Source of the DNA: a virus
Taxonomy: Duplodnaviria; Heunggongvirae; Uroviricota; Caudoviricetes
IMG/VR virus record: IMGVR_UViG_2778260994_000001
DNA length: 64,000 bases
Reading direction: 5' to 3' (one strand)
Position 1 is the stretch's first letter, and each line of letters begins with the position of its first letter. Below, one piece after another: positions 49,934 through 51,151 of this stretch. Under the pieces are notes generated by a model that had not been told where the DNA came from, made no database searches, and worked only from the letters and a program-made list of their open reading frames with translations. The position numbers were made by a program, and so were the translations under genes.

Positions 49934-51151
49934 ATGCCAACTGAATATGCTCGCGACAATCTTGGTCGCTATCAGACTGATGGATTAAGTGCAAAAGACT
50001 TTAACAAGGTCTTCGATCTTATCCGTAAACAGCAGCGTCAGAATCGGCGAAACGCGCGACGTACACTCACCCCCAGGATTATGGGGATGCGTAACCGCGA
50101 ACTTGAGGCATTCCTCAGCCTTGGGAAAAAGAAAGATGGCACCTACTTTACGCCCGAAGATATACGCAGTTTCAACACCTCAAGGCAGGCTCATAAAACC
50201 AAATTCAAGAGCACGGTACCCGGCATTACCTATGCTCAGCTGGTGGCGCAGTCCACCAGCATTGATATAAAACGCGCTAACAACAAAGTTTCTGATGGCA
50301 CAGGGATCAAAGCCGCGACATTCCTCGGGCTAAAACACAACCTTGCATTGATATCTGTTAATGCCTCGGATGAGTCGGTCCACCAGCATCACCGTGTCAG
50401 AATTCGATTTGAGGAATGGGATAAAGCCGTTGAGAAAATTGCTGAAGACGGTGCGAAAAAAGCCCGAATCGCTGCCGATCTCTGCAAGGGCCGGGTATCT
50501 TTCGACTGTGATTGTGGACGCCATCAATACTGGTATCGTTATATGGCCACGGCTGGTAACTATGCTGTCGCGCCGCCAAAAGAGTATGCATTCCCCAAGA
50601 TCCGCAACCCTGATCTGACTGGTGTAGCCTGCAAACATGTGTTGCACGCTATGACGCGTTTTCAGTCTCCCACATGGCACAAGGCCATCATTATTGCCCT
50701 GGAAAAAGCAGCTGAACAGGTGGCCTTCGGCGATGACAAGCGGAAGACAACAACCTATTTCAAAGGCGAACTGGCTAAATCGCTCGCGCGCAACCGGACA
50801 ACAACGACGGATCAGGCTAAAGCGGCGCGTGAGTATGAGTTATATCTGAAATCTCAGGATGCATTAGGCAAAAAACTACGCGCCAAAGATAGCGCCACGG
50901 ACAACGTTCGCCGGTTGTTAAAAAAAGCTCGCACCACGGCAAACAGGAAGAATGCCGAACTAAAAGCCTCGCGGGTGAGGGAAGCCCAGGCTCGCGCTGA
51001 AGCCGACGCTCTCAAAAAAGCCCTGCAAACGCAGGCGAACAACCTCATAAAATTTTTCATGAGTCAGGGAATGGACAAGGCCGCTGCCACTGCGCAGGCG
51101 CGAAGCATTCTTGAGACACAAATTAACGAAGCCCGTAAACGGAAAGGATAA
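49934..51151 (+). CDS. SWIM zinc-finger protein with basic coiled-coil C-terminus
   Basis: CDCGRHQ...CKHVLH (CxC-Xn-CxH). Confidence 0.5.
   Translation: MPTEYARDNLGRYQTDGLSAKDFNKVFDLIRKQQRQNRRNARRTLTPRIMGMRNRELEAFLSLGKKKDGTYFTPEDIRSFNTSRQAHKTKFKSTVPGITYAQLVAQSTSIDIKRANNKVSDGTGIKAATFLGLKHNLALISVNASDESVHQHHRVRIRFEEWDKAVEKIAEDGAKKARIAADLCKGRVSFDCDCGRHQYWYRYMATAGNYAVAPPKEYAFPKIRNPDLTGVACKHVLHAMTRFQSPTWHKAIIIALEKAAEQVAFGDDKRKTTTYFKGELAKSLARNRTTTTDQAKAAREYELYLKSQDALGKKLRAKDSATDNVRRLLKKARTTANRKNAELKASRVREAQARAEADALKKALQTQANNLIKFFMSQGMDKAAATAQARSILETQINEARKRKG

Follow-up and report, generated by a model that had tools for sequence, protein, structure and literature searches.

The window we analysed is a stretch of 64,000 nucleotides from a Caudoviricetes record in IMG/VR (IMGVR_UViG_2778260994_000001). 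Part of its plus strand is taken up by a block of late genes in the order 26-25-7-24-6-5, an operon that, by the annotation of the phage P1 record AF234172, is driven by the late promoter LP26 (Table 1). Our subject is the second gene of this block, for whose product an earlier note, made from the letters of the DNA, had proposed a SWIM zinc finger, a coiled-coil tail, and a part in DNA binding or particle assembly. The ORF call bore out the 405-residue plus-strand protein described there, along with its location in a block that ends with a gpV-like protein. That protein is the product of gene 5, which scores E 1.1e-4 and 22.9 bits against Pfam Phage_base_V, just below the 23.8-bit cut-off. 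Our gene starts 9 nucleotides past the stop of its upstream neighbor, behind a GGGA stretch that resembles a Shine–Dalgarno sequence.

Table 1. Promoter, genes, and protein segments of the late operon, in window coordinates
Feature	Coordinates	Strand	Details
Late promoter LP26	49499..49517	+	-22 element AAATGACTA, -10 TAGAAT; identical to annotated LP26 of P1 (AF234172)
Gene 26, 125 aa, LysM/T4 gp53-like baseplate protein	49547..49924	+	PHROG 1269, E 2.7e-40; PDB 9ay5_S, 9vzk
Gene 25, 405 aa plus stop	49934..51151	+	ATG start; intact ORF
gp25 residues 1-60	49934..50113	+	Basic N-terminal segment, net +7; predicted helix 20-40, then low-confidence linker
gp25 residues 61-262	50114..50719	+	Predicted folded core ending in SWIM-like unit
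SWIM-like zinc site (putative)	50507..50638	+	C192-x-C194, 38-residue insert, C233-K-H235
gp25 residues 263-405	50720..51148	+	Basic tail, net +18; long predicted helices 294-377 and 382-404
Gene 7, 242 aa, neck stopper	51155..51883	+	PDB chain 9ums_B; role from PMC12810830
Gene 24, tail terminator	51870..52655	+	GTG start per P1 annotation; mechanical ORF list starts at TTG 51852
Gene 6, baseplate hub (historically 'tail length')	52657..53673	+	
Gene 5, gpV-like central spike; closes the block	53666..54298	+	Phage_base_V; PHROG 430

The protein is 99.5% identical to P1 gp25 across all 405 residues, and the DNA of the region 49500-54300 is 98.4 to 98.7% identical to phage P1, RCS47, and SJ46. 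With a match this close to an annotated P1 record, the ORF is a classical P1 gene that already has a name: judged by sequence, it is gene 25 of a P1-type genome. Nothing material separates the window protein from P1 gp25, which has the same operon, late promoter, and neighbors, and we refer to both as gp25. Over its full length (residues 1-405), gp25 matches PHROG 1722 (E 7.2e-227) and, more distantly, PHROG 4315 (E 3.1e-46). Neither the protein, nor its core, nor a profile of its family found a sequence match in Pfam, NCBIfam, or the PDB.

Gene 25 has long been known through amber mutants and bears the label 'tail stability', both in the annotation of AF234172 and in later papers. The same record labels gene 7 tail stability, gene 24 baseplate or tail stability, gene 6 tail length, and genes 26 and 5 baseplate. 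That the 'gene 25' of genetics corresponds to this ORF is taken from the annotation of the P1 record. For the electron-microscopic phenotype of the mutants, we follow the GenBank annotation and later papers; that the gene is essential is likewise a claim of the literature. The P1 literature we examined gave no published molecular function, fold, or virion location for gp25.

The putative zinc-ligand motif and the predicted fold

There are four cysteines in gp25 (184, 192, 194, and 233), three of which combine with H235 to build the motif C192-D-C194 ... C233-K-H235. A pattern of this type, C.C-(4..60)-C.H, turned up in 30 of 200,000 composition-preserving shuffles of gp25, a frequency of 1.5e-4. 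We collected relatives in two ways: a word-indexed search returned 489, and an exhaustive profile search returned 654 family clusters at 50% identity, mostly 330 to 450 residues long. The family spans phages and prophages across Beta- and Gammaproteobacteria. In an alignment of 134 diverse representatives, 23 to 43% identical to P1 gp25, residues C192, C194, C233, K234, and H235 are invariant throughout (134/134), and so are G97, E217, P221, N225, and G230. The CxC-Xn-CxH signature picked out in the earlier note is therefore real, being both improbable by chance and kept by every representative. C192, C194, C233, and H235 would be the residues through which gp25 binds zinc.

The stretch between the two half-motifs varies in length between 36 and 43 residues, with 125 of the 134 representatives having 37 or 38. 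In gp25, it comprises a helix and then an invariant loop, ...E217..FPKIRNP..G230. Conservation across the family peaks within it, at GRHQYWYRY.AT.G.Y....E..FPKIRNP.L.G. Going by this alignment, the spacer is not a loose linker.

Does this make gp25 a SWIM protein? The Pfam SWIM model (PF04434; 38 positions, gathering threshold 19.6 bits) matches neither gp25 nor its isolated core at E values up to 10. Among ten distant family members scanned with the same model, two (P0210 and P0232) reached 10.4 and 11.8 bits, through the CxH half only. Since the entire Pfam model is only 38 positions long, SWIM half-motifs must normally lie close together, and gp25 lacks this compact spacing, its spacer alone exceeding 35 residues. 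The structural comparison reads differently. We ran the structure prediction that had been suggested as a check, and the motif region models as a SWIM-like fold. An AlphaFold2 model of full-length gp25, made without templates, has a pLDDT of 80 and a pTM of 0.67; a second model, of residues 62-292, has a pLDDT of 81 and a pTM of 0.80. The predicted core, globular and about 200 residues long, opens with helices (74-115), continues with a three-stranded sheet (125-159), and has further helices at 162-185. A strand (188-192) then leads into CxC, followed by a helix (195-207), the conserved loop at low confidence, and a helix that begins at C233-K-H235 (helix start 234). A strand carrying CxC and a helix starting at CxH are features expected of the SWIM fold, and the model has both.

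Matches to this fold in BFVD at probability 1.0 include a 139-residue 'SWIM-type domain-containing protein' of Achromobacter phage Motura (target TM 0.60). At the sequence level, a weak link to the small SWIM-type proteins comes from the gp25 homologue of Acinetobacter phage ABMM1, which matches PHROG 18980 across the motif region (E 4.6e-4). A PDB sequence search linked gp25 to no solved structure, and the best Foldseek match of the full-length model in the PDB (E 0.46) was to unrelated proteasome and PI3K chains. Literature searches on SWIM domains in phage virions returned nothing relevant. With Pfam silent and the spacing long, yet the ligands and predicted fold in place, the models indicate that the gp25 core ends in a divergent SWIM-like zinc finger, a non-canonical member of the class. 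The SWIM finger of the earlier note thus survives in its invariant ligands and its fold comparison; what falls away is the canonical form, with PF04434 unmatched and the half-motifs so far apart.

On either side of the core, gp25 is markedly basic. No other ORF product in the window is as basic as gp25, which has a net charge of +37 and a pI of 10.15. The charge is spread unevenly, with +7 in residues 1-60, +7 in 61-120, +2 and +3 in the two segments that follow, and +18 in 263-405. Across the 134 representatives, the median net charge is +31 (range +14 to +51); all but two of them (132/134) have a positively charged C-terminal region. In the N-terminal segment, G11, G17, L18, F23, F27, I30, and R38 are conserved in P1-like members; in distant clades, the segment is variable.

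The earlier note had described the tail as a long basic coiled coil. Basic it is, and AlphaFold does predict long helices, but the heptad signal of a coiled coil is missing: the enrichment at a/d positions is equalled by 26% of shuffles, and the power at a 3.5-residue period is reached by 33%. The composition is 20% hydrophobic, 21% Ala, and 24% Lys plus Arg. As its periodicity is no better than that of shuffles, we describe the tail as a basic Ala/Lys/Arg-rich helix, not as a demonstrated coiled coil. In relatives, the tail is a charged helix of variable length, in many cases ending in a short two-helix motif. SHOCT-like C-terminal scores in three distant members all fall under the respective cut-offs (P0210, 15.8 bits against 27; P0232, 16.0 against 24; P0239, 12.2 against 24), and Pfam finds no SHOCT match in P1 gp25 itself. 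As modelled, the tail is a basic helical arm, possibly a spacer carrying a terminal docking motif.

A conserved gene order and a charge pairing

A scan of IMG/VR with P1 gp25 as query gave near-identical P1 copies only. Using distant members as query uncovered 46 diverged viral loci, at about 30 to 38% identity. A gene 26 homologue lies immediately upstream of the gp25 homologue, on the same strand, in 36 of these 46, as it does in nearly all prophage loci, and a gene 7 homologue lies immediately downstream in 38. The usual block in the diverged loci is Mat-26-25-7-24-6-5. A second, deeper clade of prophages has the order TerL-24-Mat-26-25-X-capsid-sheath-tube. Its hosts include Acinetobacter, Psychrobacter, Nitrosomonas, Paraburkholderia, Pseudomonas, and Halomonas, among others, and both ABMM1 and Xanthomonas phage Rb1 belong to it. 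X is an acidic protein of about 175 residues (PHROG 4597) that occupies the gp7 slot. BLASTP and a two-sequence hhalign of this protein against gp7 were negative; a 48-sequence profile comparison gave E 0.0012, at a probability of just 19%.

Because both clades keep this order, we regard 26-25-(acidic small protein) as the constant core of the arrangement. Nor is the gene an oddity within its structural block: dozens of strongly diverged phages and prophages keep it between genes 26 and 7. The operon also holds the baseplate genes 26, 6, and 5, so that synteny gives no preference to the neck.

The neighbor of gp25 is as acidic as gp25 is basic. The net charge of gp7 is -35 and its pI 4.05, with -26 falling within the first 80 residues. 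Across the loci, gp25 homologues carry +23 to +46 and gp7 homologues -11 to -40, against median charges of -6 to -0.5 for the homologues of gp26, gp24, gp6, and gp5 (individual values -20 to +16). The magnitudes of the gp25 and gp7 charges do not co-vary across loci (Spearman -0.14, p 0.41), and acidity is in any case common among neck and tube proteins.

These data also bear on whether gp25 is a fragment of a tape measure or a head scaffolding protein, the case named in the earlier note as one that would overturn its reading. One can see where the idea would come from: the model has a long C-terminal helix, some database records label neighboring genes 'tail length', and in the ABMM1/Rb1-like clade the gene sits two genes upstream of the major capsid gene. 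A tape measure should be helical almost throughout, with a length in proportion to that of the tail. The dimensions of gp25 are wrong for it, as 405 residues, at 1.5 Angstrom each, could cover no more than about 60 nm, and the long helix accounts for only about 110 of them. More than half of gp25 is a globular core bearing the putative zinc ligands, the constant synteny partner is a proven baseplate protein, gp26, and the phenotype given in the annotation is one of unstable tails, not of lost heads or of tails changed in length. In P1, moreover, the tape measure is Sit (1140 residues), and an N-terminal domain of the capsid protein is thought to serve as scaffold (PMC9024508). Length, architecture, and synteny together speak against the idea, and we give it next to no weight.

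Detection of gp25 in virions and its possible roles

Virion proteomics had been put forward as a check, and the data already exist. Gonzales et al. (2022, PMC9024508) detected gp25 in CsCl-purified P1 virions, though weakly, through two peptides at a coverage of 8.4%. Their table also lists two peptides (11.1%) for gp7 and four for gp6, and it misses gp26, gp5, PmgA, and UpfC, all of them proven components (PMC9024508). The authors flagged the gp25 signal as too weak to assign a structural role. They stated that HHpred gave no role for gp25, gp7, or gp16, and left it open whether these are structural proteins or cofactors (PMC9024508). It is now known that gp7 is a 6-copy and the hub gp6 a 3-copy component. 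In our reading, the gp25 signal therefore lies in the range of real low-copy parts, being similar to those of gp7 and gp6 in a dataset from which proven components are missing. A protein with a charge of +37 could also simply stick to DNA or virions, giving the same signal.

Presence in virions speaks to another proposal, that gp25 serves as a regulator, of late transcription or of the nucleoid-associated type. The homologue in Rb1 bears the annotation 'transcriptional regulator MvaT' (PMC13478112), a label with which the high basic charge of the family would agree, and the maturation control protein Mat adjoins gene 26 upstream in relatives. Against it, gp25 was found in virions (PMC9024508), and the loss of a regulator should be pleiotropic, like that of Mat; the gene 25 phenotype is limited to tail stability. 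We searched gp25 and ten diverse relatives for H-NS/MvaT or HTH domains of Pfam at E values up to 1 and found none. A regulator of the MvaT type is rejected for want of any such domain, and the broader proposal strikes us as highly improbable.

The structural record is notable for what it leaves out. Cryo-EM has placed almost every morphogenetic protein of P1. A 2026 study identifies the gp26 plug, the gp7 stopper, the gp24 terminator, the gp6 hub, and the gp5 spike and does not mention gp25 (PMC12810830), nor does a 2025 preprint on the P1 tail and baseplate. When the gp25 sequence was searched against the PDB, it retrieved no P1 chain; as a control, gp7 and gp26 retrieved theirs (9ums_B for gp7; 9ay5_S and 9vzk for gp26). 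Of the six products of the operon, gp25 is thus the only one missing from the deposited P1 virion models, and the only one still without a fold, a location, or a mechanism.

Genetics adds a further piece. CRISPRi knock-down of gene 25 lowered the efficiency of plating to about 0.1 (roughly 10-fold), with no polarity on 7, 24, 6, or 5, and the authors attributed this to ineffective roadblocks (Piya et al. 2023, PMC10695390). We looked for an internal promoter that might explain the lack of polarity; a generic sigma-70 scan gave fewer sites than in shuffled sequence and nothing credible.

What role would best account for all this? Our preferred explanation, to which we would assign a rough probability of 0.35, is that gp25 is a low-copy polycationic adaptor for tail completion or head–tail joining, working with the stopper gp7 and the terminator gp24. 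The label 'tail stability' is common to genes 7, 24, and 25, and two of the three products have since been shown to be stopper and terminator (PMC12810830), the pair of rings by which the tail is closed and connected to the head. An adaptor is the most economical reading of a shared phenotype, adjacency to gp7 in almost all relatives, opposite charge, a putative zinc module, a low level in virions, and invisibility once symmetry is imposed. Docking on a partner would fall to the zinc-stabilized core with its invariant loop, and the basic arms would bind a polyanion, either acidic components of the neck or, in the axial channel, the packaged DNA at its end. Some copies of gp25, few in number, might stay in the virion, in the axial channel or at some other asymmetric or flexible site that symmetric cryo-EM averages out, or gp25 might be bound only transiently. 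Zinc binding, the choice of partner, placement in the neck or lumen, and the stage at which gp25 acts are inferences, and we hold the explanation as a whole with a confidence in the low to middle range.

Its closest competitor would take gp25 out of the particle altogether. gp25 might be a non-structural assembly chaperone or catalyst, transiently neutralizing or escorting an acidic partner such as gp7, gp24, or parts of the baseplate, in the manner proposed for T4 gp26, gp28, and gp51 during assembly of the hub. Its absence from all the cryo-EM models fits this. So do a charge opposite to that of the adjacent gene product, and the low confidence with which the most conserved loop is modelled, as expected of a loop that folds on its partner. 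The weak mass spectrometric signal, flagged as uncertain by its authors, can be read the same way, were it not that gp25 appears in CsCl-purified virions at a level like that of genuine components present in 3 to 6 copies, in an experiment that failed to detect several proven ones (PMC9024508). Tail-protein chaperones, furthermore, are more often acidic. We consider a chaperone possible but somewhat unlikely.

As a further alternative, gp25 could be a pilot that binds the last-packaged DNA end in the neck channel, is needed for productive head–tail joining, and leaves with the DNA, in functional likeness to T4 gp2 or Mu gpN. It would then also be a candidate for the protein that keeps the ends of abortively transduced P1 DNA together. 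The net charge of +37 and that of the family (+14 to +51, median +31) are suggestive here, as is a zinc-finger class often tied to nucleic-acid or protein binding, with an invariant insert between the half-motifs in which aromatic and basic residues abound. A low copy number and a failure to appear in symmetric maps would suit a site in the lumen. On the other hand, Pfam recognises no DNA-binding domain in gp25, and the classical phenotype is a tail defect, not a defect in DNA stability. P1 also packs several DNA-contacting internal proteins, DarA and Hdf among them (PMC12810830), and these are equally good candidates. A pilot therefore seems unlikely to us.

The pilot reading is nevertheless worth spelling out for what would follow from it. 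Among generalized transducing phages, P1 is the classic one. Ikeda and Tomizawa in 1965 and Sandri and Berger in 1980 reportedly saw a protein bound to the ends of P1 DNA after transduction, which counts in favor of a pilot. One could imagine that gp25 rides the packaged DNA end in the neck or tail channel, enters the cell, and clamps the ends through its core and arms, which would make it a candidate for the protein of abortive transduction. We think this very unlikely. If it were true, DNA-end gp25 would be a candidate for the protein that circularizes and protects abortively transduced DNA, a role at the DNA end would explain why loss of gp25 blocks stable head–tail joining, and the finding would touch on what becomes of transduced DNA, a question 60 years old. 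Whether gp25 is adaptor, chaperone, or pilot, the DNA-binding or assembly role first proposed for this protein still gives a reasonable range of functions.

Comparison with known systems

That gene 25 exists, what class of phenotype it gives, and that P1-like phages carry it were all known before. Absent from the papers we examined, and apparently new, are the SWIM assignment, the strict conservation of ligands and insert, the size and spread of the family, and the pairing of a positive gp25 with a negative gp7. The finding improves annotation, since a large gp25 family is at present invisible to Pfam. A SWIM finger, extreme basicity, and pairing with an acidic stopper also turn the opaque label of 'tail stability' into a lead that can be tested.

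Set beside the SWIM finger as it is usually known (PF04434, PROSITE SWIM-type; ZSWIM8, PDB 9rwz, is an example), gp25 has the CxCxnCxH ligands in common. It differs in keeping its half-motifs 36 to 43 residues apart, with a helix and an invariant loop between them. Its basic arms and its phage morphogenesis operon are also unrelated to the SWI2/SNF2, MuDR, and MEKK contexts in which SWIM is found. Nearer in predicted fold are three small phage proteins of SWIM type, from Motura (A0A514CSJ7), Burkholderia phage BcepSauron (A0A482MLT0), and Erwinia phage Y3 (A0A2H4IBE8), which superpose on gp25 over 160 to 176 columns with Foldseek probabilities of 0.96 to 1.0. They are 139 to 256 residues long, lack the basic tail, and are 12 to 19% identical to gp25.

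In function, the likeness we would draw is to lambda gpZ and SPP1 gp17, which are completion or joining proteins, and to T4 gp2 and Mu gpN, which act on the DNA end. Searches of Pfam, PHROG, Foldseek, and the PDB gave no similarity of gp25 to any of them in sequence or fold, and we offer the likeness as a functional analogy, not as membership. All four are low-copy proteins essential for infectious particles. They do their work at the head–tail interface or at the DNA end, and they are hard to see in symmetric reconstructions.

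Opposite charges on neighbouring gene products

The pairing of gene 25, which encodes a basic protein with a SWIM-like zinc-finger core, and gene 7, which encodes the stopper, sets side by side two products of extreme charge, almost equal in size and opposite in sign: gp25 carries a net +37 and gp7 a net -35, of which -26 is held in the first 80 residues of gp7. The opposition of sign is kept across 37 diverged loci; the magnitudes of the two charges show no co-variation across diverged loci.

Features of the gene 25 neighbourhood and of its relatives
Feature	Location	Strand	Detail
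mat, P1 'maturation control' gene	window 23219-23887	-	
Gene 25	window 49934-51151		pI 10.15
Gene 7	window 51155-51883		pI 4.05
gp25 homologue, Xanthomonas phage Rb1	L083 8809-9888		PQ569993.1, 'transcriptional regulator MvaT'
PHROG 4597 protein, gp7 slot	L082 5699-6247		
PHROG 4597 protein, gp7 slot	L083 9893-10396		
gp7 homologue, 710 aa	L121 12298-14427		

The ABMM1/Rb1-like prophages of Beta- and Gammaproteobacteria (loci L082, L083 and L164-L241) have PHROG 4597 in the gp7 slot, 3' of the gp25 homologue. Its members there are acidic proteins of about 175 aa, encoded directly ahead of the capsid gene; compared with gp7 by profile, they give a borderline result, E 0.0012 at 19% probability. 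The gp7 homologue of another relative, at L121, owes its unusual length either to fusion or to extension on a large scale.

Annotation of gp25 relatives

The Rb1 homologue of gp25 has been presented as a nucleoid-associated regulator (PMC13478112). Domain searches lent no support to that label or to MvaT. The protein appears to have been mis-annotated and to be a basic morphogenetic one. Another oddity among the gp25 relatives is P0017, a gp25-like protein of 303 aa in which Pfam recognises a LysR substrate-binding domain; this is probably a chimera created during assembly.

Expression and gene order

In published work, targeting genes 26 and 25 (window 49547-51151) with CRISPRi roadblocks lowered plating only about 10-fold and had no polar effect on 7, 24, 6 and 5, the essential genes that follow (PMC10695390). 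Between 49400 and 54500, a generic sigma-70 scan returned fewer promoter-like sites than shuffled sequences did, none of them positioned to drive gene 7. Gene 24 begins with GTG at 51870 in the P1 annotation (261 aa); its mechanical ORF begins with TTG at 51852 (267 aa) and shares 32 nt with gene 7.

In the window, some 26 kb separate mat from gene 26. Most of the diverged relatives (loci L087-L130) carry a mat homologue immediately upstream of gene 26, in the order Mat-26-25-7-24-6-5, which suggests that the linkage of mat to these genes is ancestral and has since been broken in P1.
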